DNA of 64,000 bases from Calditrichia bacterium (GCA_050633245.1 JBOEGD010000018.1:1-64000), one strand, 5' to 3'. Shown: positions 18,428 to 41,483, numbered from the stretch's first letter. A program made the numbers and translations. Notes: generated by a model not told the origin, from the sequence alone.

Positions 18428-19368
18428 TGTGATACACCAGACCCTCCCGGAATAAATCCGTATATTCCGAAGTCATAAATGGAGGTAGTCTAATGCATCA
18501 AGAAGTCAAAGATATTCTAAATCAAAGAAGAAAACTGGTAGTTCTGGAGTATGCAAAAGCTATTGGTAATGCTCGCAAGGCCTATACCGAATTTGGAGTA
18601 CCGAGCTCCTCTTTCTATGAGTGGAGAAAAATCTTTGAGCAAGACGGCGAAGCAGGATTTCTACGAAAGAAGCCGGTAGCCAGATCACACCCTAAGAAAA
18701 TTAAACAGCCTGTCATCGATAAGATCGTTCACTTACGGACCGACTACCAACTCGGTTTCAAACGAATCCAATTCTACCTGGAACGCTATCATAGAATCTT
18801 CATTTCTGAGTCGAGCATTACAAGGGCATTGGTCAAGCACAAGATCAATCGACTTCCTAAAACTGCCTCTAAGCGAACCCTTCATACCAAACGATATACC
18901 ATGAAAACACCTGATCACCACGTTCAGGTAGATATTAAATTTCTTAAACTTAGCGACGCTTCCGGCAAGAAGATGAGACGCTTTCAGTATACAGCAATCG
19001 ACGATGCAACTCGTATCAGAGCCTTGAAGATTTACAAAAGACATACACAGCAAAACGCAATTAACTTTATTGATTATGTCGTAGATAGGTTTCCATTTCG
19101 AATTCACACGGTACGAACCGACCGGGGGCATGAGTTTCAGGCAAAATTTCACTGGCATGTAGAAGACCAGGGCATGAGACATGTCTATATTGAACGGGCG
19201 ACACCGCAACTCAATGGCAAAGTAGAAAGATCGCATCGAACGGACGAAGAAGAGTTCTATCATTTCCGTAGACCACATGGGGCATTTAAGGGAAGAACAC
19301 TTGTATGAGAAGCTAAGACCTCTCTTGTTAAAAACGTAAATCATTCCGGGAGGGTCTGCTGTAGCACA
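18428..19368 (+). mobile_element. IS481-family insertion sequence (decayed)
   Basis: 26-bp terminal IRs TGTGATACACCAGACCCTCCCGGAAT (18428-18453) and 19343-19368, 24/26 match, TGT…ACA ends. No clear target duplication. Confidence 0.88.
18493..19340 (+). pseudogene. IS481 DDE transposase with a C-terminal deletion and frameshift
   Basis: HTH N-terminus, VQVDIK, AIDDATR, TDRGHEF, NGKVERSH. 'EEFY' joins directly to 'HFRRPHG', and the 'YEKLR' tail lies in another frame. Confidence 0.75.
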
Positions 19369-19514
19369 AACAATACGTCATCACTCCCCGTCAAATAATC
19401 ACCTTTTCTTGCCACAGTTTGCTCTCAAATGTTTTCCAGGCATAAGACCTAACAACCAATTCAATCAACTCCTTACATTGACTATATTGAACTTAGCTAC
19501 TCCAATATAGTCAA

Positions 19515-19645
19515 GACTTAAAATTCCTCGGTGTGAAACACCGTGCCGGTTTGACAAAACCGCAGGATGGCGGTTTTGCACTGCCCGAACGGGCAGCCCG
19601 CAGGGCGAACAACAAGGAGGTTGTGAGTGAGTCCGGCCCCGGGTA
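19515..19645 (+). pseudogene. 3' fragment of tRNA-Leu(UAA) with a ~76-nt insert in the T-loop (probable att-site remnant)
   Basis: Anticodon loop CTTAAAA, long variable arm CGGTGTGAAACACCG, T-stem GCCGG-TTTGA[insert]GT-CCGGC, acceptor 3' strand CCCGGGTA. The 5' half is absent. Confidence 0.7.
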
Positions 19646-19805
19646 TTTAGTAAAAACAATATTTGGGGCTGATTGGCAAAGCTGCTGATTAGCCTTGTTT
19701 TTTGCTGGTGGTAAAAGAAGTGGTAACAAGCGGATTGCTGAAAGTGATTAGCTGACTGTATGGCGTTAAAAAAATATGGGACGGGGCTAACGATCTTCTA
19801 AGAGA

Positions 19806-19834
19806 TGGTGTTTGATTAGTTTAGTCAAACACCA
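19806..19834. promoter_or_regulatory. Inverted repeat (operator or hairpin)
   Basis: TGGTGTTTGA-N9-TCAAACACCA. Confidence 0.4.
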
Positions 19835-20604
19835 GGCGGCGAATTATGCCTAAGTAATCCAGTCCTGAAAGAAGGGATGTTTAAATCGTCAGAAAAGTCA
19901 TTGATTTATTCGTCACCCGTCTCTTCGATTAAAGACAAGTCACTCCGAGAGATTTTGGCGATTTACATTTAAATGTTGAATTTATATATAGAAATACTTA
20001 TTATTTATCTATCACTCCCCTCCATCTTACAAAGGCGATATATTTAACGCTTTCAAAAACAATATTCTAAAATGTTAATATCACAAACATGCATTAATTT
20101 CGCTTGTTTTGTTTGCAAAAACTTGCGAAAAGTTCTGACTTAGTACGACTCTTGATCCTGCGACTAAGAGTAAGTCTCGATTATATCTTTAAGCTATTTT
20201 ATACGTAAACTATGCAACTATTCATTTTTATGTTATTCAGGGGATGGATATTGTAACATAATAACCATCAAGCATTGTTTGTTTAGCTCGTATACCTGAG
20301 GGCTACAAAGTATGGAATATTACAATTTAGTAAGAAAGACCATAACCTTTAAACCTATATGGCTACTTTCTACTTTGAAGATGAGGAAGCCAAATGTAAC
20401 TGCCGGTTCTCCGGAGGTTTTTGTAGGCTCGATTTTGTAAATAACGGAACCTGTTTTATGAAGTTTGTATGATTCCCATTATAACTGTAACAAACGACAT
20501 TTATTAATTCTTAGCCTGTCTCAATTTGGTATGCAATTCTGTGGTGTTAGTAAGGGCTTCATTTGTTTGCCACTATCTTGTAGGAAAATCTTGGTACTTA
20601 AAAG

Positions 20605-22986
20605 ATGACAACCGAAAAAACACAAATTTTCCTGTCTTATGCACGCGAAGATAAACTTCAGGTAGCCGAGTTCTATAGGAGGTTGTTTGAGTTGGGATTC
20701 AATCCGTGGATGGCTAGTGAAGATCTTTTGCCCGGGAAGGAACAGAAATCAACTATTGCAAAGGCAATAGAGAATTCAACATTTTTTGTTGTTTTCTTAT
20801 CAAATCAATCAGTAATGAAACGTGGATCAGTGCAAGTAGAATTAAAAGAAGCATTGAAAATATTGCAAGAGAAGCTTCCGGAAGATATTTACTTGCTACC
20901 AGTTCGACTAGAACCGTGTGACATTCCGGATTCCCTGGGAGGGTTGCAACATGTTGATCTGTTCGAAGAAGAGGGCTTCGATCGGTTGATCCAGGCTATT
21001 AATTCGGGATTAAGGCCACTCAGTAAGAGTCCAGGAAATAAATCAAGGATTCCAAACAGGGACGAGGGTTCAATGAATAAAGTGTTTATTTGCCATGCGG
21101 ATAAAGACATGGCTTTGGCGAAGGAACTGGCCGATTTTCTCAAAGGAGACATAAAGGTATTTCTTGAAGCAGATAACGATGAAGACCTAACGACCAGAAA
21201 TGAGAAAATTGATAATGCCCTGATTAGCAGTGATTACTTCCTTGTTGTCTTATCCAAATCGGCTCTCGGCTCAGAATCGGTTGCTGAGCAACTGGATATT
21301 GCTCGTAATCTGCATAAAGAGGGAAATATCGATATTCTCGTTTTTTTAAAAGAGAAATGCAATATTCCACCCTTTCTTAAGCGCTTCGAGATAATTAACT
21401 ATATCGGGCGTCCGAAAGAAGCGCTTAAGAGGCTCTCAAGGATGGTAACACAAACCGGCACCGATGATCAATTTGAGTATAATACATCTCATACAAAGCC
21501 GGATCCAAACGATAAGAAGGAAGATGACCGTATTCCTTTCTCCAATCAGGAGAAAGTTATTCCGAAAACACTAAGGCCATACGGCAACCCAATCAGAATT
21601 GTTAATGGCCCACCCGGCTCTGGAAAATCATATCTTCTGAACCAGCTAAGCTCCTTTTTCAGTGATCCATCAAGCATACCGGAAGTTTATAAAGTGAATC
21701 CTATGCCACACCCGGCTCGGTGTATTTTAGTCGAGTCCAATGGGCAATCAATTAGAAAATTAATAAATAAGTTATTCTCTGAGTTTGGAGAAGAGATACC
21801 AGCAGGTAGTAAAGTTGCGTCGCTCGGTCATCAATTTGGTGATATGATCCTTGAAGATCATAGTCGCTCTCAAAGGGAATTCGGATATGCACTCCTTATC
21901 GACCTTAATGGAATACCGAACGATAGATTCCTTGAATCGCTGCGACAGGAATTCCTGCCGAGTTTGTTAGAGTCGCTATGGACAGATGATTTCTTCGCCT
22001 GTGAAGGCCAATACGTCGGCGAATTGATGAAGTTTCATATCATAATTGCAGGAAGCTCCTTATCCCGTTTTACTATGGATACTTGGGTAGATGAAACATG
22101 TAATCTTCATCCCTTTTCAATAGAACACCTGCAAGATACAGCCCAAAAATATCTAAGAGATGGGTTCCGCAAGGAGAGCCTGGACCAGCTTTGTAATCAT
22201 ATTTACCATTTTAGTGGTGGACATACCCGCTGTATGGCAGAAATTTTACGTCTATACAAGAGTGTTCGGGTGGCTTCCCCGAACAGGTTTATCGAGGAAT
22301 ATGGAGTAAAAGTTGAAACTATTGTTACCCATGAAAGGTACGAGCTAAAGCAGAGCTGGCCCGAATATCTTGTAACTCTTATGGAAGCATTATGCGGATA
22401 CAGATATATTAATGAATTTCTTTTGGGTAGATTGATTGAGGAAAATAACCTCAGTCAACATGTTAATGTAGCTAGGCTAATCAAAAGGTTGAAAAAACTA
22501 AATTATCTTATACCCCATAACCGTGACGCACGAGTTCTTGAGGTTCATCATCATCGTATTCTGGGGCACTTACCTAATCAGGATGTCACAAACTCCGTTA
22601 ATGCCAGAAATTCATGTCTTGCTTATTTGCAAGTTACAGACCAGAATCCTCAAGCTATCGAACGGTGGGGAATAGAATATTTGTTCCACTCCCTAAATAT
22701 TAATACACATGACAAAAGTCCTGGGCAGGTTGGGATTTTCAGAAATAACTTTTTTGACTCCGAACTACCAAAGATCCTCGACGTGCTAACAAGTATAAAT
22801 AAAGAATGGCTGACATTGCAGGAAAAGTTAATTGAAATATTGAAATATGATAAAGATTTTCAGTTTTCAATCAATTACAGTCTCGGAAGTTCTACCAGCA
22901 AATCAACTATGTTTAAAACACTCATCGATAAAATAAATATCTATTTTGAAACGAAGAGTAACCGAGGAGGGGATGATGCCGACTAA
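20605..22986 (+). CDS. TIR-TIR-P-loop NTPase (STAND-like) protein
   Basis: TIR1 IFLSYAREDK…FVVFLS…VQVELKEA, TIR2 VFICHADKD…FLVVLSKSA…VAEQL, Walker A GPPGSGKS, 'SGGH' helical-domain motif. Confidence 0.8.
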   Translation: MTTEKTQIFLSYAREDKLQVAEFYRRLFELGFNPWMASEDLLPGKEQKSTIAKAIENSTFFVVFLSNQSVMKRGSVQVELKEALKILQEKLPEDIYLLPVRLEPCDIPDSLGGLQHVDLFEEEGFDRLIQAINSGLRPLSKSPGNKSRIPNRDEGSMNKVFICHADKDMALAKELADFLKGDIKVFLEADNDEDLTTRNEKIDNALISSDYFLVVLSKSALGSESVAEQLDIARNLHKEGNIDILVFLKEKCNIPPFLKRFEIINYIGRPKEALKRLSRMVTQTGTDDQFEYNTSHTKPDPNDKKEDDRIPFSNQEKVIPKTLRPYGNPIRIVNGPPGSGKSYLLNQLSSFFSDPSSIPEVYKVNPMPHPARCILVESNGQSIRKLINKLFSEFGEEIPAGSKVASLGHQFGDMILEDHSRSQREFGYALLIDLNGIPNDRFLESLRQEFLPSLLESLWTDDFFACEGQYVGELMKFHIIIAGSSLSRFTMDTWVDETCNLHPFSIEHLQDTAQKYLRDGFRKESLDQLCNHIYHFSGGHTRCMAEILRLYKSVRVASPNRFIEEYGVKVETIVTHERYELKQSWPEYLVTLMEALCGYRYINEFLLGRLIEENNLSQHVNVARLIKRLKKLNYLIPHNRDARVLEVHHHRILGHLPNQDVTNSVNARNSCLAYLQVTDQNPQAIERWGIEYLFHSLNINTHDKSPGQVGIFRNNFFDSELPKILDVLTSINKEWLTLQEKLIEILKYDKDFQFSINYSLGSSTSKSTMFKTLIDKINIYFETKSNRGGDDAD

Positions 22987-25804
22987 AGTTTCATTTATTG
23001 GACGAGAAACAGAGTTGGAGAAAATTTTATCCTTCGCGGCAGAAGAGAAGACCAGGAAGGTGCTCTTGATTGAGGGGGATGGTGGAATTGGAAAATCTGC
23101 CCTTCTGACAGAGGCACGCGAAAAATGTTTGAATATTGAAGAAGAATATCAGAAACTTTTGGGCAGTGAAATTGAACTGGATGATTTACACATTATAGAT
23201 ATTATCGATTTCGACAATCGACTTAACCATATTCCAGAAGTAGTTAGAAACTTTATTGCTGAGCAGTTAGATGCGAATAGCTTTAAAAACTATTATAAAC
23301 TGCTTGAAGATTTACGCATGATGAAAGCTAAAAAAGTTGAAGGGTTCGAACTACAAGAGAAGGAAAAGGAAGTACGCAGCAGTTTTGTGACAGATTTCAA
23401 TAAATTTAGCCAACAGAATCGTGTCGTTATTTTTTTTGATACCATGGACTCACTTCCTGCAACAACGATATGGGATCGATTAATCGACTTTATATTGGAA
23501 GTGAAAAATGTTCTTTTTGTTTTGGCTGGCAGGAGTAGTATTAAGCTTATTGAACACATCGAACCTCGATTAGGGGATGATGTAGAACGTTTAATACTTC
23601 AGCCAATGTCTGAAAAAGACAGTATGAATTATCTGAATCTGAAGAAACAACAATTACATCTAAATATTCCTGATTCTCTCACCGAAAAACTACTTTATAT
23701 TGCTCGCGGATTGCCAATTATTGTCGATCTTGCTGTTGAATGGCTGGCACGAGGTGTAAGGCTAGACTGGCTGGAAAAAGTCGAGCCGACGCAAACTGAA
23801 AAAATTAATATTCAACAGCTGAAACTGTGGGAAAACCTCTTGGTTAGTCACATTGCGGATTTACACCATCCTATGAATGAGCTCTGCCTTGTTCTTTCAC
23901 GAATATACCCGCTGGATAAAGATGGATTAAGGGTATTCTTCTCAGAGCAGGATTATGATGCTGACCTTCTTTTTGAACAGGCGCAAAACTTTGTCTTCAT
24001 TAAAACAATCTCTGGTAAGTCGCTTACGATATCTCTCCATGATGAGATGCGCAGGATGGTAAGTGAATATGTCTGGCCGGAATATGACCCGGACGGTACG
24101 CAACGAAAATCAGAAAGTAAAATTGCAATATCGTACATTATGGAACAACTTCGTAATACAGAAAATCAACTTGATAAACTTGAGAAGAATCCAACTTCGG
24201 TGTCTCACCCCGCCCTTGTTAGGATAGATCTAGATTCGGAATTGTCGATTCTGAATAAGCAGCTTGTCGAGCATGAAGTTTTTGTAAATCTATTTGAAGA
24301 TTTTGATCGCTATAAAGATGAAAGCAATAAGGCCAGACGAGGCTATGATTTTGTTTTCGCACGCCGTCTTCAGGAGTCGATCGCTTCACTCTATCCATTA
24401 TTCAATAATGAACAACAATATCAGTTCGATTTGCTCAAAGGTCGCCTCCAATACCGCCTTCAGGAAAATAAAAGTGCTCAAAAGCTGTTTAAAAAGCTGC
24501 TCAGACAAAACAAGGATGATGATTATAGAAGAGGTGAAATTTATAATGGGTTGGGTATTTGTGAAATGAACCTCGCCGATTTAAAGAAAGCACTAATGTA
24601 TCAGAAGAAAGCCTTAAAAGTTTTTACAGAAGGAAAATACGAATATCCTATACCTTTTGTAGCAAATCAAATCGGATTAATATATTCAAAGCTGGAGAGG
24701 TGGGAAGAGGCTGTAAAAACATTTCAGAAGGCATTTGATGCCGCAAATAATTTACCGGTAGGTCAGAAGAGGGATTCTGAAACACACAAGAAAAGGATTC
24801 CTCAAGATGAAAAAATGGATTTAATGGCTGGAATTATGAATTATTGGGGATTTGCTAACGCAATGATTGGCCGACGTGATGAAGCATTTGACTATTGTAG
24901 TGAAGCAATTGAAACCTGGAAGATTTTAAAATTACCTCGAAAAATGGCACGGGGTTACGCCTTGCTGGGAGCGGTCCATCGCATTAGAGAGGAATTCGGT
25001 CTGGCTGAAAGTTTTTTGGAAGAAGCCATTAAAGGCATAGAATTACCAAATGATAGCGAGCGCATGGTGCAGGCATATTCTGACCTTGGATTCACGTATC
25101 ATATCATGGGAGTAGATCCGGAACTAGAACAGATTTTAAAGGCGCAATCATTGCTTGATATAGGTGTATCGATCGCTAAGAAATATGATGTCCGCCTGGA
25201 GCTGCCGCTTTTGCAAAGTCGGCTGGCCCGGGTGTACTGGCTTTTTTTCCAGAAGGACCCGGATAATTCAACTGATCCCAAAATCGCCGAATACAAACGC
25301 AAGGCACGTAAAACTAATGAAATCGCCTATGAAGGAGCTGAGAAAAATGGGCATACCTATACAATCGCAAAGTGTATTCTGGGTAGAGCAGAGTTTGATA
25401 TCGAAGACCCGAAAGCCTCAGAAGATAAAATCCCGCAGTACGCTATTCAATTACAAAATGCCCTGAAAAAGTCTCCAAAAAAATATCCGCTATTTGAAGG
25501 CCGGATGGATCGTATTCAGGCAGAAATGTTTTTTAAAAAGAAAGATTTCAATAAGGCAATTCAGTTCTACGCCGATGGCCTTTCAAAAATCAATTTGCAT
25601 GGCGGATACGGCACTTACTCGATTGAAGAAGAATTGAAAAAACTTTCTGCGGAGCTAGCTATGTTGCCTAAAACAGATGCTTTACAAATGATTGTAGAAC
25701 TAAATACGTTCTGGAATAATAATAGCTACAGAAAAACCAATCAACGCTTGATCTCGTGGTGTCGCTCGCAGACTGTGAGAATAAATGCTAGCCAACGAAG
25801 GTGA
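22976..25804 (+). CDS. STAND/AAA_16 ATPase with C-terminal TPRs
   Basis: FIGRETEL, Walker A GDGGIGKS, Walker B IFFDTMD, LAGR, ARGLP, LHDEMR, TPRs. SD GAGGAGG before ATG 22976, overlapping the upstream stop. Confidence 0.85.
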   Translation: MPTKVSFIGRETELEKILSFAAEEKTRKVLLIEGDGGIGKSALLTEAREKCLNIEEEYQKLLGSEIELDDLHIIDIIDFDNRLNHIPEVVRNFIAEQLDANSFKNYYKLLEDLRMMKAKKVEGFELQEKEKEVRSSFVTDFNKFSQQNRVVIFFDTMDSLPATTIWDRLIDFILEVKNVLFVLAGRSSIKLIEHIEPRLGDDVERLILQPMSEKDSMNYLNLKKQQLHLNIPDSLTEKLLYIARGLPIIVDLAVEWLARGVRLDWLEKVEPTQTEKINIQQLKLWENLLVSHIADLHHPMNELCLVLSRIYPLDKDGLRVFFSEQDYDADLLFEQAQNFVFIKTISGKSLTISLHDEMRRMVSEYVWPEYDPDGTQRKSESKIAISYIMEQLRNTENQLDKLEKNPTSVSHPALVRIDLDSELSILNKQLVEHEVFVNLFEDFDRYKDESNKARRGYDFVFARRLQESIASLYPLFNNEQQYQFDLLKGRLQYRLQENKSAQKLFKKLLRQNKDDDYRRGEIYNGLGICEMNLADLKKALMYQKKALKVFTEGKYEYPIPFVANQIGLIYSKLERWEEAVKTFQKAFDAANNLPVGQKRDSETHKKRIPQDEKMDLMAGIMNYWGFANAMIGRRDEAFDYCSEAIETWKILKLPRKMARGYALLGAVHRIREEFGLAESFLEEAIKGIELPNDSERMVQAYSDLGFTYHIMGVDPELEQILKAQSLLDIGVSIAKKYDVRLELPLLQSRLARVYWLFFQKDPDNSTDPKIAEYKRKARKTNEIAYEGAEKNGHTYTIAKCILGRAEFDIEDPKASEDKIPQYAIQLQNALKKSPKKYPLFEGRMDRIQAEMFFKKKDFNKAIQFYADGLSKINLHGGYGTYSIEEELKKLSAELAMLPKTDALQMIVELNTFWNNNSYRKTNQRLISWCRSQTVRINASQRR

Positions 25805-25808
25805 TCTT

Positions 25809-27263
25809 ATGCATTCAGGAATTCGGGTATCAACACAAGAAAAATTGTCAAGAACTGATATTGATTCAGTAGATTGTTCATCTCTAATCGCGACAAATCA
25901 ACGTTCTAATTCAGCTGAAAACCTTGATTGGGACAAGCAGTATGTACGCAATTTTGATTCGCTGGAGTTAGATAACGGTGATGTGGTTTGCTATAATGGG
26001 CAGAATGCCCCTGCCTTGCTTTGCTCCAAGGTCTTTGAAATTCTTACCGCTTTTGAAACTCCATCATCTATTAATCAAATTTTTAAAAGTGATGCCGGGT
26101 CTTTCAGGATAAAAGAGTTCGGGGAAATGGTGGAGAGCTTTATTTCACTCGGTCTTATTTTACCGTTAAACCGAATCGTGCCTAGGCCCAATGAGGTCAT
26201 TGATAAGTTGACGGCATGGCTACATATCACAGATGTTTGTAATCTGAGTTGTAGTTACTGCTATTTGCCTCATAATCCTGTGACGATGTCAATTGCAACG
26301 GGAAAGGGTATAATTGATTCTGTCTTCAGGTCAGCGAGTGAGCAGGGTTTGGAAAAAATCCAGCTAAAATATGCAGGCGGGGAAGCAATGTTGAAGCTTC
26401 CTATCATCTGTGCCTTGCAAAAGTATGCGATGGAATTAGCCGCGAAACATGATGTCCAACTTGAGTCAGTTGTGCTAAGTAATGGGACCCTGATTAATTC
26501 ATCGGTTATTGAGGAGCTCAAGAAGTTAAATTTGCACATAACTATTTCACTTGATGGATTAGGGCCCCTTCATGATCAACAACGTCATCATGCTAATGGA
26601 AAGGGATCATTCGCAAAAGTTGTTGATGGTATTGCACTATTAGTTGCGCATGGAATAAAGCCTTTCATTGCAGTCACCATCAGTAGCAATAACGTCGATG
26701 GGCTGGCCGAACTGACAGAGTGGTTACTCAGACATGACCTGCCATTTAAGTTTAGTCTTTATCGTGACAATGCATTTGCAAAATCAACTCATGAGCTGAT
26801 GCTTGATGAAAAGAAAATTATTGCTGGCCTACGTGCTGCTTATAAAGTGATTGAACTGAACCTGCCTAAAAAGTGTTTGCTGAACTCTTTGCTTGATCGG
26901 TCAAGCTTATCAGAACCACAATTAAGGTCGTGTGGAGCAGGCGAAAACTATATGGTTTTTGATTACAAGGGCAACGTATCCAAATGCCAGATGCAAATGA
27001 ACGTCTCTGTCACAGATTTTCGTAGCCGAGATCTACTTGAAGAACTTCAGAGTTCTGAAAAGGGTGTGATCAACTTAAGCGTCGATGAACGAGAAGGATG
27101 TCGCGATTGTAAGTGGAAATATTGGTGTGGTGGTGGGTGCCCTGCACTTACTTACCGTGCTACGGGCCGATACGATATAAAGTCTCCCAATTGTAATATT
27201 TATAAAGCATTATATCCTGAAGTGGTACGGCTAGAAGGTCTTAGGTTGCAACTTTTCTCTTAA
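25809..27263 (+). CDS. Radical SAM/SPASM-domain protein
   Basis: CNLSCSYC, GGE, SNGT, ISLDG, SPASM CGAG…C…CRDCKWKYWCGGGC…C. SD AAGGTGAT. Confidence 0.92.
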   Translation: MHSGIRVSTQEKLSRTDIDSVDCSSLIATNQRSNSAENLDWDKQYVRNFDSLELDNGDVVCYNGQNAPALLCSKVFEILTAFETPSSINQIFKSDAGSFRIKEFGEMVESFISLGLILPLNRIVPRPNEVIDKLTAWLHITDVCNLSCSYCYLPHNPVTMSIATGKGIIDSVFRSASEQGLEKIQLKYAGGEAMLKLPIICALQKYAMELAAKHDVQLESVVLSNGTLINSSVIEELKKLNLHITISLDGLGPLHDQQRHHANGKGSFAKVVDGIALLVAHGIKPFIAVTISSNNVDGLAELTEWLLRHDLPFKFSLYRDNAFAKSTHELMLDEKKIIAGLRAAYKVIELNLPKKCLLNSLLDRSSLSEPQLRSCGAGENYMVFDYKGNVSKCQMQMNVSVTDFRSRDLLEELQSSEKGVINLSVDEREGCRDCKWKYWCGGGCPALTYRATGRYDIKSPNCNIYKALYPEVVRLEGLRLQLFS

Positions 27264-27477: not shown

Positions 27478-27948
27478 TTACTTTTTTTGATCGATCTGCT
27501 TTCGCATTTCTGCACGACGCTCTTCGGCAATTTCTTTCCACATCTTTAGTTGCTCCTTTGAAAGAACTTCCTTGAGCTTTTTTTCTGCAACCTTATCTAC
27601 CTTTAACATGGCGCTGCGTAAGCTAAGCTTTTTGCGAAAGCTGAGATTGCGAATTTCTCCCGGATCTGCCGGGTCGATGCCATATTTGGCGAGGACAGCA
27701 ATCCGATTTTTACCACTCTCTTCGATTATGGGCCGGAAAGCCTTGCTTTGTTCGTCCGTTAGCTGTAGATGGTCTTCGGTTTTCTTAAGCTTGACCTGCA
27801 TCTCTTCTTTTAATTCAGAGCTGATTTCTTGATGCTTCTCTCCCTTTACATCCGCTGTGTTATCCTGAGCATGTAGAGGTGAGATGTGCATTAATAGCAG
27901 GATGATAAACACACCGGAGAGTTGAGTGCGGATTGTTCTGTGGGTCAT
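27478..27948 (-). CDS. Secreted helical hypothetical protein (Spy/CpxP-like LTxEQ motifs)
   Basis: Signal peptide LHA|QD, LQLTDEQ and VLSKEQ motifs. Confidence 0.65.
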   Translation of the reverse strand: MTHRTIRTQLSGVFIILLLMHISPLHAQDNTADVKGEKHQEISSELKEEMQVKLKKTEDHLQLTDEQSKAFRPIIEESGKNRIAVLAKYGIDPADPGEIRNLSFRKKLSLRSAMLKVDKVAEKKLKEVLSKEQLKMWKEIAEERRAEMRKQIDQKK

Positions 27949-29929: not shown

Positions 29930-32900
29930 ATGTTAAAATCAACCCGTTATTTTTATAGTAGCTGTGCAAATATAATACTCCTCTGTTTGGGCAGTTTCGT
30001 GTTTGGACCAATACAACTTTCCGCGCAGAACTCTTTGCCTTCAGATAAGTACGGTGTTATCGCGAAACACCACTTTAAGGTCCTTGTCTTCTCTAAAACC
30101 GCGGGATTTCGGCATGGCTCCATTCCCGATGGTATTGCTGCCATACAACTATTGGGTATGCAAAATCTGTTTGATGTGGACGCCACTGAGAACGCTGCAG
30201 ATTTTACCGACGCCAATCTTGCGCAGTACGATGCGGTGATATTTCTAAACACCACCGGAGACGTGTTAAACGACACCCAACAGGAAGCATTTGAACGCTA
30301 TATCCGTGCGAATGGTGGATTTGTTGGCATCCACGCGGCTTCAGATACCGAGTATGGCTGGCCGTGGTATGGCGACTTGGTCGGCGCGTATTTTGATAGC
30401 CACCCCAATATTCAGACCGCTGAAATTGTGGTGGCCGATCGCTTCCATCCCTCTACAACCGTTCTGCCGGAACGCTGGCAGCGTAACGATGAGTGGTATA
30501 ACTTTCAGTCAAACCCGCGCGGCGATGTGCATATTTTAGCCACGCTGAGCGAAAATAGTTACTCTGGTGGAAATATGGGATACGATCACCCCATTGCCTG
30601 GTGCCACGAGTACGACGGTGGACGTGCCTGGTATACCGCTGGCGGACATACCAATGCCAGCTACTCGGAACCGGATTTTTTGCAACACATACTTGGTGGA
30701 ATTCGCTTTGCTGCAGGTGATGTGAGTGCTGAATGTGGTGCGACGATCGAGCAAAACTACGAGAAGGTTGTGCTTGATGACAATACGCAAAATCCAATGG
30801 AGCTTGCCGTTGCCCCCGATGGCCGCGTTTTCTATGTAGAGCGAACCGGTGAGGTGAAGCGTTTTGATCCGGCAGACAATTCAGTGCAGCAGGTGGCGCA
30901 ACTAAATGTCTCTACTGCTCAGGAAGACGGTTTGCTAGGTATTGCCCTAGATCCAGATTTCGATACCAATCAGTGGATATATTTGTTCTATTCTCCCGCC
31001 GGCACGATTCCGCGTCAGCTTGTCTCCCGCTTTACCTATACGAATGACATAATTGATTTAGGCTCCGAAGTTGTGCTGCTGGAAATACCGGTTCAGCGGG
31101 ATGAATGCTGTCATTCAGGTGGCTCGCTTTCCTTTGGGCCAAACGGCAATTTATTTATCTCAACCGGCGATAACGTGAATCCCTTTGCCTCCGACGGCTA
31201 TACGCCTATCGATGAGCAGCCAAATCGTGCGGCATGGGATGCGCAGGGAAGCTCGGCAAATCGTAACGACCTGCGTGGTAAAATTCTACGCATTAAACCT
31301 GAGGCAAACGGCAATTATACCATACCTGCAGGAAATCTCTTCCCCGAGAACGGCACGGATGGACGCCCGGAAATCTATACGATGGGTCTGCGAAATCCAT
31401 TTCGTTTCTCGGTCGATCCAACGAATGGCTGGCTTTACTGGGGCGATATTGGTCCGGACGCTGGATCGGATAACGCATCGCGTGGCCCGAAAGGATACGA
31501 TGAATTTAACCAGGCGCGTGAGGCAGGTAATTTCGGCTGGCCTTACAGCATTGCGGATAATAAGCCGTATCGCGATTACAACTTTGCTAACGGACAACCG
31601 GGGCAGCTATTCGATCCACTAGCACCTATAAATACCTCTCCCAATAATACGGGAAGTCAGACCTTGCCTCCTGCAAAGCCGGCTTGGATCTGGTATCCAT
31701 ATGAAGCCTCGTCGGAATTCCCTGAGTTGGAAGCCGGAACGCGCACCGGTCTTGCCGGGCCGGTATTCTACCACGACCCGTCGAATCAGTCTGAAAACCG
31801 ACTTCCACAGTATTTTGACAATACACTGTTTATTTATGAGTGGAGCCGTAGCTACATAAAAGAGGTGAAGCTCGATCAAAATGGAGCCCCGTTAAAGATA
31901 AATGACTTCCTTCCCGGAACAGAATTTCTACGTCCAATCGATATGGAGCTCGGGCCGGATGGCGTGCTATATATTTTGGAATGGGGCACGGGCTTTGGCG
32001 GAAATAATCCAGACTCGAAGCTCAGCCGTATTGATTTTGTGCGCGGCAGTCGTTCTCCGATAGCTATTGCCCGAGCCGAGCCAAGCTCCGGTCCATTACC
32101 GCTTAATGTTCAGTTCTACGGTGAGGATTCTTTTGATCCGGACTTTGGAGAAACGCTGAGCTTTGCATGGAGTTTTTTGGGCGATAACACGATTAACAGC
32201 ACCGATATGAATCCCACATTTACCTACACAGCTGCCGGTGTTTATATGGCTCGTCTTACAGTTACCGATCCCGATAGCAACGAAGCTGTTGTCAATATTC
32301 CGATAACTGCCGGTAACTCCGAGCCCGAGGTGACAATCTCGGCACCGGCGGAAGGCGGCTTTTATCGCTGGGGGGATGCCGTCGAGTTTGCCTTATCCGT
32401 AACGGATGTTGAGGATGGTAGCACAGCCAACGGGACAATTGATTGCGACTCTGTGGTTTTTCAAGCCCTGATTGGGCATAATGACCACGCTCATCCACTG
32501 GATCAGTTCAACGCCTGTGATGGAAGTTTTGACGTCGTTGACGGGCACGGCGGCGATGCAGACAATCTGTTTTATGTTGTGGAAGGAAGCTATACTGATC
32601 GCGGGGCTCCCGGAACCGGACAATTAACCGGCCGGGATATTCAACGTATAAATCCAATGCGCCTTGAAGCAGAATATTTTAGTCAAAACAATGGTGTGCA
32701 GCTCGAAACAACCGGTGATATTTTGGGTGGCGGAGAGAATATCGGATTTATTGCTCATGGCGACTACATTACCTTCGAGAGCCTGGATTTACGCAATATA
32801 GACTTTATGACATTCAGAGTTGCATCTGCCGGTGTTGGTGGGAGAATTGAAGTACGAACAAATGCCACGACTGGCCAGCTTTTGGGTACCGCCTATGTGG

Positions 32901-33811
32901 AACCGACGGGGGACTGGCAGTTTTATCGCAGTGTGACCATCCCGATAACCGATCCCGGTGGAAGTAATGAGATTTTCTTCCTCTTTCTGAATCAGCCCGG
33001 AAACGATGGTCTGTTCAATGTCAATTGGATTGATTTTCACGGCACCGGTATCTCTGTGCCGGATCCACTGGACCCTGATGGATTATCAGCTTCGTATTTC
33101 GATACGCCGGATCTTGCCGGTGGTGCGCGAGTGCAACGTGTCGATCCCATGGTCAACTTCAACTGGGATCAGTATTCGCCTGCTCCCAGCATCGACAATA
33201 ATACATTCTCGGTGCGATGGAGTGGTTTCTTACGTGCTCCGGAAACCGGAAACTACCGCTTTTATACCCGTACTGACGACGGTGTACGCTTGTGGATTGA
33301 CGGTGATCTTAAAATTGATCAATGGCAGCCACAGGGCGCTACAGAGTATCAGACGAATAACATCCCGCTACAGCGCGGTAATTTTTATCATATCAAGATG
33401 GAATATTTTGATGACCAAGGCTTAGCACAGGCCGACTTGTCCTGGTTTGGACCATCCATTCCCAAACAGACTATCGGCCGCGAATATCTCTATCGCGAGG
33501 GACATCCGGTAGGCTTGGAAGCTGGCGATGATGGACAGATTATTCCTAAAGAACTGGTACTCTTTCAGGCGTATCCGAACCCATTTAACCCCAGCACGAC
33601 TCTTTCGTTCAGCTTGCCTCGCCGACTGGACGTCAAACTAAGAATCTTTGACGTCTTGGGACGTGAAGTGGCGTTAGTCCTAGAAGAATCTCTTCCTGCC
33701 GGAAGCCACGTGATGAAATTTGATGCTGCCGACCTTGCGACCGGTGCATATTTTTATCGTCTGGAAACGGCAGTTGGAGTGAAAGTGAAAAGAATGATGC
33801 TTCTAAAGTAA
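29930..33811 (+). CDS. Secreted ThuA-like + glucose/sorbosone dehydrogenase beta-propeller + PKD + CBM6 + PA14 + C-terminal sorting domain protein
   Basis: VLVFSKTAGFRHGSI (ThuA), CCHSGG and MGLRNPFR (GSDH), PKD, RVASAG…TGDWQ (CBM6), FSVRWSG…DDGVRLWID (PA14), YPNPFNPST tail. Confidence 0.88.
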   Translation: MLKSTRYFYSSCANIILLCLGSFVFGPIQLSAQNSLPSDKYGVIAKHHFKVLVFSKTAGFRHGSIPDGIAAIQLLGMQNLFDVDATENAADFTDANLAQYDAVIFLNTTGDVLNDTQQEAFERYIRANGGFVGIHAASDTEYGWPWYGDLVGAYFDSHPNIQTAEIVVADRFHPSTTVLPERWQRNDEWYNFQSNPRGDVHILATLSENSYSGGNMGYDHPIAWCHEYDGGRAWYTAGGHTNASYSEPDFLQHILGGIRFAAGDVSAECGATIEQNYEKVVLDDNTQNPMELAVAPDGRVFYVERTGEVKRFDPADNSVQQVAQLNVSTAQEDGLLGIALDPDFDTNQWIYLFYSPAGTIPRQLVSRFTYTNDIIDLGSEVVLLEIPVQRDECCHSGGSLSFGPNGNLFISTGDNVNPFASDGYTPIDEQPNRAAWDAQGSSANRNDLRGKILRIKPEANGNYTIPAGNLFPENGTDGRPEIYTMGLRNPFRFSVDPTNGWLYWGDIGPDAGSDNASRGPKGYDEFNQAREAGNFGWPYSIADNKPYRDYNFANGQPGQLFDPLAPINTSPNNTGSQTLPPAKPAWIWYPYEASSEFPELEAGTRTGLAGPVFYHDPSNQSENRLPQYFDNTLFIYEWSRSYIKEVKLDQNGAPLKINDFLPGTEFLRPIDMELGPDGVLYILEWGTGFGGNNPDSKLSRIDFVRGSRSPIAIARAEPSSGPLPLNVQFYGEDSFDPDFGETLSFAWSFLGDNTINSTDMNPTFTYTAAGVYMARLTVTDPDSNEAVVNIPITAGNSEPEVTISAPAEGGFYRWGDAVEFALSVTDVEDGSTANGTIDCDSVVFQALIGHNDHAHPLDQFNACDGSFDVVDGHGGDADNLFYVVEGSYTDRGAPGTGQLTGRDIQRINPMRLEAEYFSQNNGVQLETTGDILGGGENIGFIAHGDYITFESLDLRNIDFMTFRVASAGVGGRIEVRTNATTGQLLGTAYVEPTGDWQFYRSVTIPITDPGGSNEIFFLFLNQPGNDGLFNVNWIDFHGTGISVPDPLDPDGLSASYFDTPDLAGGARVQRVDPMVNFNWDQYSPAPSIDNNTFSVRWSGFLRAPETGNYRFYTRTDDGVRLWIDGDLKIDQWQPQGATEYQTNNIPLQRGNFYHIKMEYFDDQGLAQADLSWFGPSIPKQTIGREYLYREGHPVGLEAGDDGQIIPKELVLFQAYPNPFNPSTTLSFSLPRRLDVKLRIFDVLGREVALVLEESLPAGSHVMKFDAADLATGAYFYRLETAVGVKVKRMMLLK

Positions 33812-37163: not shown

Positions 37164-40100
37164 ATGACGCCTGTGCGGCTTTTTACAATATATGATAATC
37201 TGGACCCACTCCAGCAGTCGATTGTTCAAATTTGTTCTATTGCCTATCGAGGGCAATCTAAAGAAGATTTGTTGAAGTGCCTTGATAAAGCCAATATCTG
37301 CAAGCCTGCCGGTTTGGCATACGAATATGAAGACCTCAAGCCAATCCTGGAAAAATTGGTCGAACAGGATATCCTTTCCATTACCAGGCAGATCAGCTGT
37401 AATCCGCAACTCATTGAATATGTAATGAGGAAGATCTATCTGCGTCCGCCGTTTAAGAAGCTGTTATCTGTGGTTAGGGATGTTCATCCACTCGAACGAA
37501 ATGGGTTCAGCTATAGCTTTGGCGGCTTAAATTTATTGGATGAAAACGTTCCACGCGAAATCCGACTGGCCATTTACGAGGGAGACGGTGATCGCTATAA
37601 TCGACTTGTCGGCTATGCTGAAAGTCGACAACTACACAATTTGCCAACGTTCTTTTTGCAAATGGTTTGCGCGAATCCATTCGAGCCTGAATGGTTCGCC
37701 AGGTTGTATAAGCCCTTCCGTGAAGCAGCAATGACCGAGATCGTGCATAATGCGATTCTGATGTTAGAACCCTGTCATGCCTACCTGACTTATCTGAAGA
37801 GTCTCGATTCAAGCGATTTATCGTCGACTATGGCAGAAAACCTTGCCCTCATTCTTTTGATACGTGGACAAACAAGTGCTGCCACAGAATTGCTGGAAAC
37901 CTCGGTGGAATCCGGAAGTGCAGACGTGAGTTTCGCTCTTATTCAACTCTTAAGCGGTAACGTGGATAGGTCGCTTCCTCTTTTTCGAAGCGCGTTGAAA
38001 TATCATCGAAAGTTGAGCCTTAACCGAAAGGACTTTTTGAGACATCCCGGAGGAGTCTTTTATTGGCTGGCGCTTTTGGCTGAGAACTCCCCAAGAGACC
38101 TTGATGAGCTCGAGAAGGTCGTTGCGGTAGATTATTCAAATCTTTCATCTACTGCGCTTGGCTGTTTGAAGGTTATGCAGATGGCAATGGTTTGCCTGCG
38201 AAGTTCCTCATCGGGAATGCCGAGCCGGTTATTGCTATCCGAAAATGGAGATGAAAAAGATAGCATCGTTGTCCTTTTCAAAAGTCTGATTATGCTGTGG
38301 TATTTTCAGGAAGAGCTGACTCAGCAGCATGGATTATTATACAACTATTTTTTGCAGGCTCGTCAATCGGGGCATCGTTGGCTGGAAATGGAGTTTGCAG
38401 CAATCCTGAAAGAGTCTGGTTATCGCGCTGCGAAAGTTGATGAGTCTGTTGAGAATCTTCCGGCACGATTAAAATTTACACCATTGGCTCATTTGCGCCA
38501 GCCTTTGTCGGCTTGGGAACGTTGCTTGAATGCTCTGGAGACACTTCCTGAAGACAGCTTTTCCAGCCTGAATTCGTTCTCAACTGAACGTTTGGTTTAT
38601 CTCGTTTCTACAGAATCGGATGGCAGTCTGCATTTTAGTCCGTATTTGCAGAAACGCAGTGCAAAAAAGGGATGGTCCAAAGGACGCGCCGTTGGCCTTG
38701 GACGTTTGTTACATGCAGATTTGGCCTGCATGAGCGCGCAAGATCATGAAATCGCTAAGACAATACTTCGAGAGCCTGGTTATTATGGAAATGAGAAGCT
38801 CTCCTTCGATACGTGGCAGGCTGCACTGGCCGCTGCTGGGCACCCACTGCTATTCTTAGCGGATTCTCCCGGTCATCCGGTTCAAATTATTCGTGATGTA
38901 CCAACAGTGGTTGTAGCCGGTAACTCAACTGGATTTTCAATTTCAATATCGGTTGCTCCACAAAAATCTGGAATAACAATTGTTGAAGAGGCAATGGATC
39001 GCTTTCGGATATTTGAGTTTACTCCGCAGCATCTTCGGGTAGCAGAAGTGCTGGGAAGTGAAGAAATGCTGATCCCGGCTGAGGGTGAGGAACAGCTTAG
39101 GCAAATGCTTGGAAAACTCTCCGGATTAATAACGATTTATTCCACGCTTGAAGGGGAGCACAATTCTGTTGTTGCTGTGGATGCCAAAGATGAGCTACAT
39201 GGTCATCTAATTCCTGTCGGTGATGGTTTTAAGCTGGAAATGTTGGTAAAGCCGGTAGGGCAGGACGGACCCTATTTAAAACCCGGAAAAGGCAGTCTCA
39301 ATATTCTGGCTACCATAAACGGTCAACGTTTGCAGGCGCGTCGCGATTTGGCTGCGGAAGAGCTGCGCATTGAAAAAGTTTTGGAGGCCTGCCCAGGCCT
39401 GCAGCTACTCGATACCGGAACAAATATCTGGGTTTTAGACGACCTGGAACATTGTTTAACGACGCTTCTTGAACTTCAGAAAATACCTGACCTTATCACG
39501 CTTGAATGGCCGGAAGGCCAGACGATGAAAATTCAATCTCGTCTCGATCTTAACAATGTCTCTATACGCATCGAACAGCAGCAAGATTGGTTCGGTCTTA
39601 GCGGTCGGGTAGAACTTGATGACAAAACCGTTATGCAAATGCATGAGCTATTAACTTTGCTTGACGACAGTCCATCTGGATTTGTGAAAATTCGAGCAGG
39701 TGAGTTTCTTGCTCTTACCGATTCATTGCAGCGTCGTTTAGAAGACTTGAAGGCTTTTTCACAAAAGAAAGCGAAGACGCTTGAAATCCATCCCACCGCT
39801 GCCTACGCACTGGAAGAGTTTTTACAGAGCTTTGGCAGTGCGCAGGTAGATGGCAGTTGGAAAGAGCATATTGCAAGATTAGAATCCGCAGAGGATATGG
39901 ATTTTGAGATTCCCTCCACGCTGCAAACGGAGCTGCGTGACTATCAAGTTCATGGCTTCAAATGGTTAGCACGTTTGTCTTACCTGAAATTTGGTGCCTG
40001 TTTAGCAGATGACATGGGATTGGGCAAAACTATTCAGGCTCTGGCGGTGTTGTTAATGCGAGCGAAAGAAGGGCCCGCCCTGGTTGTCGCCCCGGCGTCG

Positions 40101-41300
40101 GTTACCTTTAACTGGGCTAATGAAATACATCGCTTCGCACCTACTTTGAACGTGCGGCAGTTTACCCAAAACGCTCGTGATGAGTTAGTTGATGAGCTGG
40201 AACCATTCGATATACTTATATGTAGCTATGGGCTGTTGCAGAGTGAAGTTGATCTGCTCTGCAGTGTAGAGTGGGGGACCGTAGTTTTAGATGAGGCTCA
40301 GGCTATAAAAAATGTTGCGACCAAGCGAAGTAAAGCGGCCATGAAGTTGCGCGGCGGATTCAAGTTGATTACCACCGGCACGCCGATGGAGAATCATCTT
40401 GGTGAGCTTTGGACACTCTTTAACTTTATAAACCCGGGCTTGTTGGGATCGCTGAAATCGTTTAATACCACCTACGCCATGCGGATTACCAAGTTTGATG
40501 ACAGGAAAGCTCGAAATCGCTTAAAGCGTTTGCTTCAGCCGTTTATTCTTCGTCGCTTAAAAAGCGACGTACTTGATGAGTTACCGCCGAAAACAGAGAT
40601 TAATCTGAACGTTGATCTCTCACGGGAAGAGGCTGCCTTTTACGAAGCGCTGCGCCAGAAAGCGGTGCATAATCTATCTGTCCTTGACGCTGCTACCTCA
40701 GATGGCCGCTTTCAGGTGTTCGCTGAGTTGATGCGTTTACGTCGTGCCTGCTGCCATACAAGTCTCGTTGTTCCCGGTAGCGACATTAAAAGCACGAAGC
40801 TTACGCTTTTTCTGGAGTTGGTCTATGAACTGATCGAAGGGCGACACAAGGTGTTGGTGTTCAGTCAGTTTGTCGATCACCTGACAATTATTTCAGACGC
40901 TTTACGAGAGCATGACATCTCATTTCAATACTTGGACGGTTCGACTCCGATTCCGCAGCGTAAAAAACGTGTGGAAGCCTTTCAGGCAGGCGAGGGAGAC
41001 GTCTTCTTAATCAGCCTGCGTGCTGGCGGTATGGGGCTTAATCTGACAGCTGCAGACTACGTCATCCACATGGATCCCTGGTGGAACCCTGCGGTAGAAG
41101 ATCAGGCCTCAGATCGTGCGCATCGCATTGGTCAAGAGCGTCCGGTAACCGTTTATCGTTTTATTACTACCAACACCATTGAAGAAAAAATCATCGACCT
41201 GCATTCCCGCAAACGCGACCTCGCCGATGCCCTGCTCGAAGGCACCGATACGCCGAGTAGTATCTCGGTCGATGAGCTGGTGCAGCTGGTTAGAGAGTAG
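37164..41300 (+). CDS. SNF2/SWI2-family helicase-like ATPase with long helical N-terminus
   Basis: LRDYQ, LADDMGLGKT, DEAQ, TGTPMENHL, LVFSQF, GLNLTAAD, DPWWNP, DRAHRIGQ. Confidence 0.95.
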   Translation: MTPVRLFTIYDNLDPLQQSIVQICSIAYRGQSKEDLLKCLDKANICKPAGLAYEYEDLKPILEKLVEQDILSITRQISCNPQLIEYVMRKIYLRPPFKKLLSVVRDVHPLERNGFSYSFGGLNLLDENVPREIRLAIYEGDGDRYNRLVGYAESRQLHNLPTFFLQMVCANPFEPEWFARLYKPFREAAMTEIVHNAILMLEPCHAYLTYLKSLDSSDLSSTMAENLALILLIRGQTSAATELLETSVESGSADVSFALIQLLSGNVDRSLPLFRSALKYHRKLSLNRKDFLRHPGGVFYWLALLAENSPRDLDELEKVVAVDYSNLSSTALGCLKVMQMAMVCLRSSSSGMPSRLLLSENGDEKDSIVVLFKSLIMLWYFQEELTQQHGLLYNYFLQARQSGHRWLEMEFAAILKESGYRAAKVDESVENLPARLKFTPLAHLRQPLSAWERCLNALETLPEDSFSSLNSFSTERLVYLVSTESDGSLHFSPYLQKRSAKKGWSKGRAVGLGRLLHADLACMSAQDHEIAKTILREPGYYGNEKLSFDTWQAALAAAGHPLLFLADSPGHPVQIIRDVPTVVVAGNSTGFSISISVAPQKSGITIVEEAMDRFRIFEFTPQHLRVAEVLGSEEMLIPAEGEEQLRQMLGKLSGLITIYSTLEGEHNSVVAVDAKDELHGHLIPVGDGFKLEMLVKPVGQDGPYLKPGKGSLNILATINGQRLQARRDLAAEELRIEKVLEACPGLQLLDTGTNIWVLDDLEHCLTTLLELQKIPDLITLEWPEGQTMKIQSRLDLNNVSIRIEQQQDWFGLSGRVELDDKTVMQMHELLTLLDDSPSGFVKIRAGEFLALTDSLQRRLEDLKAFSQKKAKTLEIHPTAAYALEEFLQSFGSAQVDGSWKEHIARLESAEDMDFEIPSTLQTELRDYQVHGFKWLARLSYLKFGACLADDMGLGKTIQALAVLLMRAKEGPALVVAPASVTFNWANEIHRFAPTLNVRQFTQNARDELVDELEPFDILICSYGLLQSEVDLLCSVEWGTVVLDEAQAIKNVATKRSKAAMKLRGGFKLITTGTPMENHLGELWTLFNFINPGLLGSLKSFNTTYAMRITKFDDRKARNRLKRLLQPFILRRLKSDVLDELPPKTEINLNVDLSREEAAFYEALRQKAVHNLSVLDAATSDGRFQVFAELMRLRRACCHTSLVVPGSDIKSTKLTLFLELVYELIEGRHKVLVFSQFVDHLTIISDALREHDISFQYLDGSTPIPQRKKRVEAFQAGEGDVFLISLRAGGMGLNLTAADYVIHMDPWWNPAVEDQASDRAHRIGQERPVTVYRFITTNTIEEKIIDLHSRKRDLADALLEGTDTPSSISVDELVQLVRE

Positions 41301-41483
41301 GGAGTTTTATTTCTACTTGCTTTCTTTCGCTTCAAAAGGTAGTCTTTATTACTCCCTAATTAGTTTTTTAGTAACACTTATTGATTGTTGATGATAGCCA
41401 GGCATTTTATTTTACCTCTGGAATCATCCGCAATACATATTCTCCTCGCAATGCTTATATATCGAGTGAATGGGAAACTTTCG

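Follow-up and report, generated by a model that had tools for sequence, protein, structure and literature searches.

Organization of the locus

The subject of this analysis is a group of three genes in a stretch of 64,000 nucleotides (nt) of DNA from Calditrichia bacterium (GCA_050633245.1, JBOEGD010000018.1:1-64000, one strand), which is referred to as a whole as the window. Open reading frame (ORF) calling in the window identified three ORFs on the same strand, each running into the next, and these are designated g1, g2 and g3. They encode an NTPase with two TIR domains, an NTPase with tetratricopeptide repeats (TPRs), and a radical S-adenosylmethionine (SAM) enzyme with a SPASM region, respectively. 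The overlap between g2 and g3 is 20 nt, and that between g1 and g2 is 14 nt if g2 starts at an ATG codon or 41 nt if it starts at a TTG codon; the ATG at 22973 is the more likely start, rather than the TTG at 22946. The ORF calls agree in this respect with an earlier note on this DNA, which was made from the sequence alone and had described three genes that overlap or abut. The G+C content of the module is 0.36-0.42, versus 0.46-0.51 downstream. The features of the three genes, including the nucleotide-binding oligomerization domain (NOD) modules of the STAND type and the peptide-recognition domain resembling a RiPP (ribosomally synthesized and post-translationally modified peptide) recognition element (RRE), are as follows (aa, amino acids; AF2, AlphaFold2; pLDDT, predicted local distance difference test score).

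20605-22986, + strand: g1, TIR-TIR-STAND NTPase of 793 aa, an effector-carrying NOD protein without a repeat domain (ORF, Pfam, family core)
20626-20991, + strand: g1 TIR domain 1, residues 8-129 (Pfam TIR_2, profile positions 1-122 of 122)
21070-21354, + strand: g1 TIR domain 2, residues about 156-250 (PADLOC ThsB at 156-222, TIR-NLR at 157-244)
21523-22713, + strand: g1 NOD module, residues about 307-703 (invariant columns, hhalign to the g2 family)
22946 (TTG, 952 aa) or 22973 (ATG, 943 aa) to 25804, + strand: g2, STAND NTPase-TPR protein without an effector domain (ORF, Pfam)
24431-25801, + strand: g2 TPR region, reaching the C-terminus and starting at about residue 496 in the 952-aa reading (Pfam TPRs at 496-700)
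25785-27263, + strand: g3, enzyme of 492 aa in the order tail, RRE, radical SAM, SPASM (Pfam, NCBIfam, AF2/Foldseek)
25785-25916, + strand: g3 N-terminal tail, residues 1-44, disordered (pLDDT <50), with strand-like I13-R14 and with D30-C31
25938-26165, + strand: g3 RRE-like (PqqD-like) peptide-recognition domain, residues 52-127 (AF2 model, Foldseek)
26238-26261, + strand: g3 radical SAM cluster motif C152-x3-C156-x2-C159 (invariant alignment columns)
26931-27194, + strand: g3 SPASM region with C383, C401, C439, C442, C448, C452 and C470 (seven invariant Cys)

Conservation and distribution of the module

Among 8000 candidate proteins, 2003 belong to the g3 family at E ≤ 1e-3. The best homologues, 43-55% identical to g3, come from Nostoc, Calothrix, Anaerolineales/Chloroflexota and Blastocatellia, and the named homologues fall in Cyanobacteria, Chloroflexota and Acidobacteriota. 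An earlier metagenome scan with the single g3 protein had picked up a single distant locus, L001, which is 31% identical over residues 135-250. When the scan was carried out with an alignment of 26 g3 sequences, 465 stretches matched, 383 of which encode a g3 relative, and 80 loci were kept. The ORFs of these loci were searched with the window proteins and with family profiles, and g2 adjacency was scored at a profile E value below 1e-15.

Upstream sequence of 600 nt or more was available at 68 of the 80 loci, and 59 of these encode a g2-family protein directly upstream of g3 in the same orientation. A strong match to the g1 core followed next upstream of g2 in 26 of the 38 loci in which g2 is complete and the sequence extends for 1.5 kb or more further upstream. 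With g3 proteins collapsed at ≥ 90% identity (62 clusters), the corresponding counts were 48 of 53 for g2 and 23 of 32 for g1. The core pair consists of g2, a STAND-TPR protein, followed directly by g3, and in its commonest form this pair is preceded by the paralogous g1. Chance adjacency of the three genes was rejected on these counts, and g1-g2-g3 is, judged by gene order across these loci, one copy of a widespread gene module. Two rare fusion proteins, in which STAND or CHAT-STAND-TPR parts are joined to the radical SAM enzyme, support the association as well. The earlier note had proposed to check whether the radical SAM enzyme accompanies the ATPases elsewhere; since this co-occurrence test did not refute the association, it stands.

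Variant modules were also observed, in which the g2-g3 core comes after three to four genes of about 400-760 aa (L006-L008, L015, L021, L023, L024, L025, L034, L055 and L081). Twenty of the upstream proteins were scanned and gave matches to AAA_16 (5), TIR_2 (3), Trans_reg_C (2), ORC-CDC6-like (2), SWIM (1) and NACHT (1), and some g2 proteins of the variant modules are 1377-1409 aa long.

Within the lineage of the organism, g3 was detected in its own genome only, both among 41 relatives searched and among 86 genomes of the phylum (53 of high quality), and g2 and g3 are each present there as a single copy. Relatives of g3 were found neither in a plasmid collection (E 1e-50) nor in a phage collection (E 1e-20). 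This patchy distribution, together with the adjacent insertion sequence (IS), fits horizontal acquisition. The locus probably represents a copy, gained by horizontal transfer, of a widespread conflict module of three genes that resembles nucleotide-binding leucine-rich repeat receptors (NLRs) and has the appearance of an immunity or cell-suicide system; no name or description was found for it.

The NTPases g1 and g2

The N-terminal part of g1 matched Pfam TIR_2 with an E value of 3.8e-40 in two stretches, the better of which covers residues 8-129, and the P-loop that follows the TIR domains matched AAA_22 under the Pfam cut-off (E 3e-4). The Walker A motif of g1 reads GPPGSGKS and a GGH-P motif lies at residues 538-541; G338, G340, K341, D433 and G539-H540, which represent Walker A, the D and the G-H-P motif, are invariant in the alignment of the g1 family, whose core is conserved in 26 related loci at 14-25% identity to the window protein. 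The g2 protein matched TPR_12 with an E value of 1.7e-16, and positions from about 484 to 805 of the g2-family profile matched TPR proteins of the PDB. The matches of its NTPase part to AAA_16, ATPase_2, nSTAND1 and NB-ARC were all under the Pfam cut-offs. Homologues of g2 share 17-32% identity with the window protein, and GxGGxGK, D-T, G-P and L-H-D are invariant in the family.

Pfam models of the STAND type (AAA_16, NB-ARC, nSTAND1/5/6, NACHT) gave only matches below the cut-offs in the g1 and g2 families. The STAND features present in both proteins are the Walker A and B motifs and a GxP-type motif, and the two families align with each other over 367 columns. The hhalign comparison of their NOD modules gave a probability of 99.5% and an E value of 7.8e-23, with a match that spans Walker A, Walker B, the GxP-type motif (GGH-P in g1, G-R/L-P in g2) and the D-x-x-R-R / H-D-E-M-R region. 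By this profile comparison, the NTPase modules of g1 and g2 are paralogues. The parts are divided between them as the earlier note had seen, in that g1 carries the effectors and no repeats and g2 carries the TPR repeats and no effector. Toward the C-terminus the g1 family has a conserved W-E-F-x-F-x-V-N-Y motif, and the g2 family has conserved G-Y-G-x-Y and W-C motifs.

To describe the N-terminal domains at the g1 position, 24 proteins were compared, namely the window protein and those of 23 of the 26 canonical loci; L032, a duplicate of L029, and L056 and L073, which are cut at contig ends, were left out. Pfam identified TIR_2 in seven of these proteins, CHAT in three, Trypsin_2 in three, SEFIR in two, caspase in two, and SIR2_2, PNP_UDP_1, Peptidase_C25, EAD9 and EAD7 in one each (the last two tallied without assignment to a locus), so that ten effector or adaptor families occur over one kept NTPase core. 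A constant NTPase core with a swapped N-terminus is a pattern typical of conflict systems. Genes directly 5' of g1 encode a trypsin-EAD9 protein in L011 and a protein ending in EAD7 in L060, and GNAT and PIN proteins lie directly upstream of g1 in other loci. The window itself contains no EAD.

A query of the organism's own genome with g1 identified nine further TIR-bearing places, with 32-44% identity to the g1 TIR. The corresponding ORFs are on contigs C11 (219695, 255054, 261065), C2 (76891, 79623), C16, C37, C26 and C14 of the genome (G000); they include two pairs with at most a few kb between their members, as well as an ORF with an in-frame TAG, and they amount to a large TIR repertoire.

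The radical SAM/SPASM enzyme g3

The g3 protein matched Pfam Radical_SAM with an E value of 2.3e-14. The CxxxCxxC motif (C152/C156/C159) and the seven SPASM cysteines are invariant in 26 g3 sequences, of which the 25 homologues share 43-50% identity with the window protein. There were 67 matches to NCBIfam models, none reaching its own cut-off; the best was PapB with 147.2 bits versus a cut-off of 340, and the next were likewise models of peptide maturases, DynA with 127 bits and the nif11-type, QhpD-type and SCIFF models, all far under their cut-offs.

The AF2 model of the window protein had a mean pLDDT of 71.9, and its RRE-like domain, which consists of strands 52-55, 58-61, 67-70 and 77-79, helices 81-91, 96-103 and 109-121, and strand 125-127, had a pLDDT of about 80-92. 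An AF2 model of the Nostoc homologue built with 125 sequences reached a pLDDT of 86.2 and showed the same layout, including the RRE-like domain. When the g3 model was searched against the PDB with Foldseek, the best match was the thioether-forming CteB (E 6.8e-17, 460 columns), followed by TigE, anSME and ChlB, and maturases of the CteB type aligned to g3 over 460-494 columns. The alignment with CteB, an enzyme that carries an RRE, spans almost all of g3. Because of the maturase-type NCBIfam matches, the RRE-like domain and the CteB-type fold, g3 is predicted to be a peptide- or protein-modifying enzyme, and the earlier description of it as a radical SAM enzyme of the maturase type is upheld by these model matches and by the invariant cysteines.

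Enzymes of this class that bear an RRE, such as CteB, SuiB and PapB, usually act on short leader-bearing peptides. To look for such a precursor, 1149 small ORFs (18-130 aa) that lie inside the module or no more than 1.2 kb from it were collected at the 80 loci; all-versus-all blastp found no conserved ORF among them, and the clusters of small ORFs that did form came from near-identical loci only. A separately encoded conserved precursor peptide was rejected for now on this result. A complex prediction for g3 with the TPR region of g2 (residues 470-943) gave a score of 0.00 with a mark of 0.32, which speaks neither for nor against binding.

The Cys/Asp tail in front of the RRE

The earlier note had seen no FxSxx-type peptide at this locus, which agrees with the search of small ORFs, and it had overlooked a Cys/Asp motif in the N-terminal tail of g3 itself. 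The tail could be anchored in 118 of 125 homologues. It typically carries a short hydrophobic stretch of the P-x-I-L type, followed 10-20 residues further on by one or more [D/E/N/Q]CxC motifs and then by the RRE, and its consensus is CDCxxxDCAC. The [DENQ]CxC motif was present in the pre-RRE tail of 106 of the 118 homologues, as one copy in 37, two in 66, three in two and six in one, and one tail Cys column is at least 90% conserved. A copy number that ranges from one to six would be expected of a substrate-like repeat rather than of a fixed cofactor site. The other 12 homologues, including the window protein and its two closest relatives, have at most a single Cys beside an acidic residue; in the window tail only D30-C31 is found, a reduced form of the family motif. 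The AF2 model of the Nostoc homologue placed a tail strand at residues 11-13, with a pLDDT of about 61. A comparison of six tail segments with NCBIfam precursor families, at E values up to 1, gave nothing meaningful.

Longer tails occur in the g3 homologues of L012, L017, L019, L024, L025 and L040, in which E-D-[DN]-C-A-C-A occurs two or three times at intervals and as many as 11 Cys precede the radical SAM motif, and these tails resemble multi-core precursor peptides. The g3 homologue of Nostoc punctiforme PCC 73102 (P0105/P0123) is annotated with 431 aa in RefSeq (WP_234711017.1) versus 496 aa in GenBank (ACC84678.1). Since the shorter start of WP_234711017.1 removes the tail, automatic annotation may hide the Cys/Asp tail in many genomes.

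Comparison with described systems

PADLOC gave no system-level match for the locus, in keeping with the earlier note, which could name no matching defence system. It matched g2 to no family, g3 to radical SAM models at the viperin level only, and g1 to TIR models only, with all g1 matches (PDC-S66, Aga TIR, ThsB, and TIR-NLR with an E value of 3e-4 from the TIR alone) confined to the TIR domains. A search of the full-text literature, with supplements and subscription journals outside its scope, found no description of two STAND proteins that are accompanied by a radical SAM/SPASM enzyme.

Of the systems that have been described, FxSxx-COOH comes closest, but the features that define it are absent here. 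As described in the part of Kaur et al. 2020 (eLife, PMC7159879) that concerns it, this system brings together a radical SAM/SPASM enzyme, an AP-ATPase with TPRs and a TIR-NTPase. The same part links it to the VMAP ternary systems, proposes it as a conflict system of multicellular bacteria in which the peptide, once processed, serves as a signal or toxin, and cites Haft and Basu 2011 for it (PMC7159879). The likeness suggested in the earlier note was an apt analogy, since the same kinds of protein are present here, namely a radical SAM/SPASM enzyme, a TPR-bearing STAND protein and a TIR-bearing NTPase, but membership fails on FxsB, FxSxx_TPR, the precursor and the peptidase. The g3 protein falls below FxsB-type membership, the FxsB model not being among the 25 best of its 67 NCBIfam matches; g2 scored 14.4 bits (E 0.0097) against FxSxx_TPR (NF040586), the cut-off of which is 300; no small protein of the FxSxx type is conserved across the 80 loci; and Pfam found no peptidase domain, such as that of the zincin-like metallopeptidase of the FxSxx-COOH system, in or beside the window operon. 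Nor was a domain of the vWA-MoxR type matched in g1-g3 or in 15 neighbouring ORFs scanned. Unlike in the FxSxx-COOH system, the candidate peptide here is part of the enzyme, and the named homologues lie outside Actinobacteria.

The order of RRE, CxxxCxxC core and seven-Cys SPASM region in g3 is that of CteB (5WHY/5WGG), the PapB family (NF047865), TigE (8VPO) and ChlB (9GMC). In contrast to maturases of the CteB/PapB type, g3 scores under every curated cut-off and has a Cys/Asp tail before the RRE, the search near the module turned up no separate gene for a precursor, and g3 is accompanied by a pair of STAND NTPases instead of a cluster of precursor, transporter and protease.

Avs/AVAST, the bacterial NACHT proteins and TIR-NLR share with the module a STAND protein with repeats and an N-terminal effector such as TIR, and oligomerization upon sensing would be expected for it as for them; however, they carry effector, NOD and sensor in one chain, whereas here these parts are split over two paralogous NODs and joined by a radical SAM partner. 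In plants, two related NOD proteins share recognition and execution in sensor/helper NLR pairs. These pairs serve as an analogy only, and the plant pairs are not known to have a radical SAM partner.

A conserved NTPase core with variable effectors at the g1 position is also a likeness to the NTP-dependent conflict systems of Kaur et al. 2020, for which the part of that paper dealing with them sets out a coupling principle based on effector-associated domains (EADs) (PMC7159879). The trypsin-EAD9 and EAD7 proteins upstream of g1 in L011 and L060 may reflect this coupling logic, in which a core component and a stand-alone effector next to it would share one EAD. The MoxR-vWA or GAP1 GTPase core of those systems was not matched in the three genes of the window or in the 15 neighbouring ORFs. 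We file the locus as an NTP-dependent conflict system with a peptide-modifying arm, a member of no named system.

Proposed working of the module and alternative explanations

We consider it quite likely that the three genes form a functionally linked conflict module; the defence function, the chemistry and the binding at this locus are what we infer from sequence. The g2 protein would be the sensing or regulating NOD protein, or the one that is licensed, and g1 would be the executing one. Their related NOD modules would let the two proteins assemble with each other, a hetero-assembly to which we give about an even chance, and the assembly would bring the TIR domains together so that NAD+ is destroyed or a nucleotide signal is made, an output that would stop the infected cell. 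The g3 protein would be a modifying enzyme of the thioether or cross-link type, similar to CteB and PapB. Its most likely substrate would be its own N-terminal tail, with the short strand and then the Cys-Asp motifs before the RRE, or else a component of the module, and the tail, modified or unmodified, might serve as ligand, licence or brake for the NOD-TPR protein. That the tail acts as a built-in substrate comprising leader and core is a tentative proposal, with the odds against it. The earlier note had hypothesized a sensor/helper NLR pair with a ligand or components made or modified by the radical SAM enzyme, an interpretation that the gene order and the paralogy of the two NTPases support in part.

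A more elaborate form of this proposal, which we regard as improbable, is that g3 modifies itself: the tail strand would dock on the enzyme's own RRE as a leader, the Cys-Asp motifs would be cross-linked in cis, and the TPR region of g2 would read the state of the tail, so that the NLR pair would guard a metabolic activity disturbed by phage and not a phage protein. The state of the tail would then depend on SAM, on reducing power and on intact Fe-S clusters; the guarded activity might be, for example, SAM supply or redox balance, and an unmodified tail would release the TIR or other effectors.

Several observations weigh against the reading of the locus as a conserved conflict module with a tail-modifying enzyme. 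In neither AF2 model is the Cys stretch ordered, the tail strand is of modest confidence, and the idea of a self-substrate is weakened for the window copy because CxC has been lost there, as it has in the two closest relatives. No match with which to map a catalytic Glu was found when the g1 TIR region was compared with PDB sequences at E 1e-3, and the neighbours of the module in the window include no defence genes and form no defence island. An adjacent g2 is missing from nine of the 68 loci (L010, L012, L019, L059, L062, L064, L066, L068 and L072), and a canonical g1 from 12 of the 38, with a weaker AAA_16-type NTPase of ~400 aa plus other genes in six of them and something else in the other six. 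The loci are not independent, and in the dereplicated counts the best-placed locus was used for each cluster, which favours positives. The two fusions observed, a CHAT-STAND-TPR protein with a radical SAM part (1620 aa, in the order CHAT, TPR, radical SAM) and a STAND protein with a radical SAM part (1042 aa) (P0121, P0122), each occur as a singleton in an automatic assembly and could stem from errors of gene calling.

Instead of its own tail, g3 might mature or modify g1 or g2, for example by a cross-link or side-chain change on a conserved motif, and thereby act as a maturation or licensing factor. The strict adjacency of g2 and g3 and the rare fusions would be consistent with this explanation, as would the conserved C-terminal motifs of both NTPase families, and the homologues of g3 are far closer in identity to the window protein than those of g1 and g2 are, which points to a conserved substrate. 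We nevertheless judge it unlikely, given that neither g1 nor g2 was seen to have a conserved tail that is rich in Cys or Ser or disordered, that enzymes bearing an RRE usually take short leader-bearing peptides as targets, and that the variant loci keep g3 though they lack a canonical g1.

Two further explanations would remove the module from NLR-like defence or give g3 a small-molecule product. The locus could be a RiPP natural-product cluster, in which g3 matures a small precursor that is encoded elsewhere or was missed and the NTPases are pathway regulators similar to MalT and AfsR; the top scores of g3 are indeed to RiPP maturase models (PapB, DynA, nif11-type, SCIFF), and the structural look-alikes of the g1 NOD in the ESM Atlas, which are a lead only, are STAND regulators of the MalT/LuxR/AfsR type. 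Such a cluster is very unlikely here, as Pfam detected no DNA-binding domain in g1 or g2, the g1 position holds TIR, CHAT, caspase, SIR2, trypsin and EAD domains, the search around the module at 80 loci found no conserved small ORF, and the window operon has neither a transporter nor a leader peptidase. Alternatively, g3 could make a small-molecule antiviral or signal in the manner of viperin, with the NTPases sensing infection and switching it on. Prokaryotic viperin models were the only PADLOC matches of g3 (E 3e-15) and viperin structures appeared in the fold search with E values of about 1e-8 to 1e-7, but they aligned with the radical SAM core only, over about 275 columns versus 460-494 for the CteB type. 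Viperins are not known to have a SPASM region or an RRE domain, both of which (a seven-Cys SPASM region and an RRE-like domain) are present in g3, and the chance that g3 works in this manner appears minimal.

Genomic surroundings of the module

An IS element, which the earlier note had likewise placed beside the module, and an AT-rich stretch precede g1.

18428-19368, + strand: IS481-type element, given as context only and outside the system (transposase ORF and terminal inverted repeats)
19369-20604, no strand assigned: AT-rich stretch of 1.2 kb 5' of g1 (G+C content 0.36-0.38), presumed promoter region

The terminal inverted repeats of the IS are 26 nt long (18428-18453 and 19343-19368) and 92% complementary. 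Its transposase ORF (18493-19308) encodes 271 aa and scored 174.8 bits against NF033577 of NCBIfam, the cut-off of which is 224; because of the length of this ORF and its score below the cut-off, the element may be truncated or decayed.

The stretch at 19369-20604 contains no ORF of ≥ 80 aa, no Rfam match and no extended similarity to other parts of the window. A scan for promoters and terminators gave 29 and 7, versus 22.1±4.3 and 7.0±2.4 in shuffled controls, and thus no excess. A terminator-like hairpin of 15 pairs with a T run lies at 19664-19697, between the IS and the module, and might insulate the operon from upstream transcription.

The earlier note had also mentioned an att-like scar beside the module. 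This was not confirmed and was set aside, as the tRNA scan of the window found none, no Rfam family was matched, direct repeats flanking the module were only short matches at chance level, and there was no extended similarity. An inverted repeat of 22 nt (19719-19740 and 27696-27717, 91% complementary) brackets the module; it is marginal and may be due to chance. The same repeat was recovered by blastn within the window as 27 nt with 89% identity and an E value of 0.019, and its right arm falls within an LTXXQ/Spy-like ORF.

The neighbours of the module in the window comprise a secretin/pilus-type cluster, the Spy/LTXXQ-like protein, an AraC regulator and carbohydrate-related proteins with a type IX secretion system (T9SS) sorting domain. 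A SNF2-family helicase of 1378 aa is encoded at 37164-41300, the first ~920 residues of which have no Pfam match, and it is followed by two ORFs of 299 and 319 aa without a Pfam match (41385-43521). Large secreted proteins with a T9SS C-terminal sorting domain and BACON/PKD domains are encoded at 29930-33811 and 45077-48820.

Implications

The family to which the module belongs is large, with about 2000 homologues of the enzyme and with a relative encoded in most of the metagenome stretches that matched. Since the module is present in tractable organisms such as Nostoc punctiforme PCC 73102 (ACC84678.1), the questions that it raises are testable, and the Cys/Asp tail that precedes the RRE in the same chain provides a concrete biochemical handle. 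If the module is an immune system, it would be an example from bacteria in which sensing and execution are divided between two paralogous NLR-like ATPases, so far mainly a plant theme, and the NLR-like pair would be linked with an enzyme of the radical SAM/SPASM class, which is known from natural-product biosynthesis and not from immunity. If, in addition, g3 does modify its own tail and the NLR-like pair reads the state of that tail, this would be a new principle of sensing in STAND immunity, and g3 would stand for a new class of radical SAM enzymes with a fused leader.

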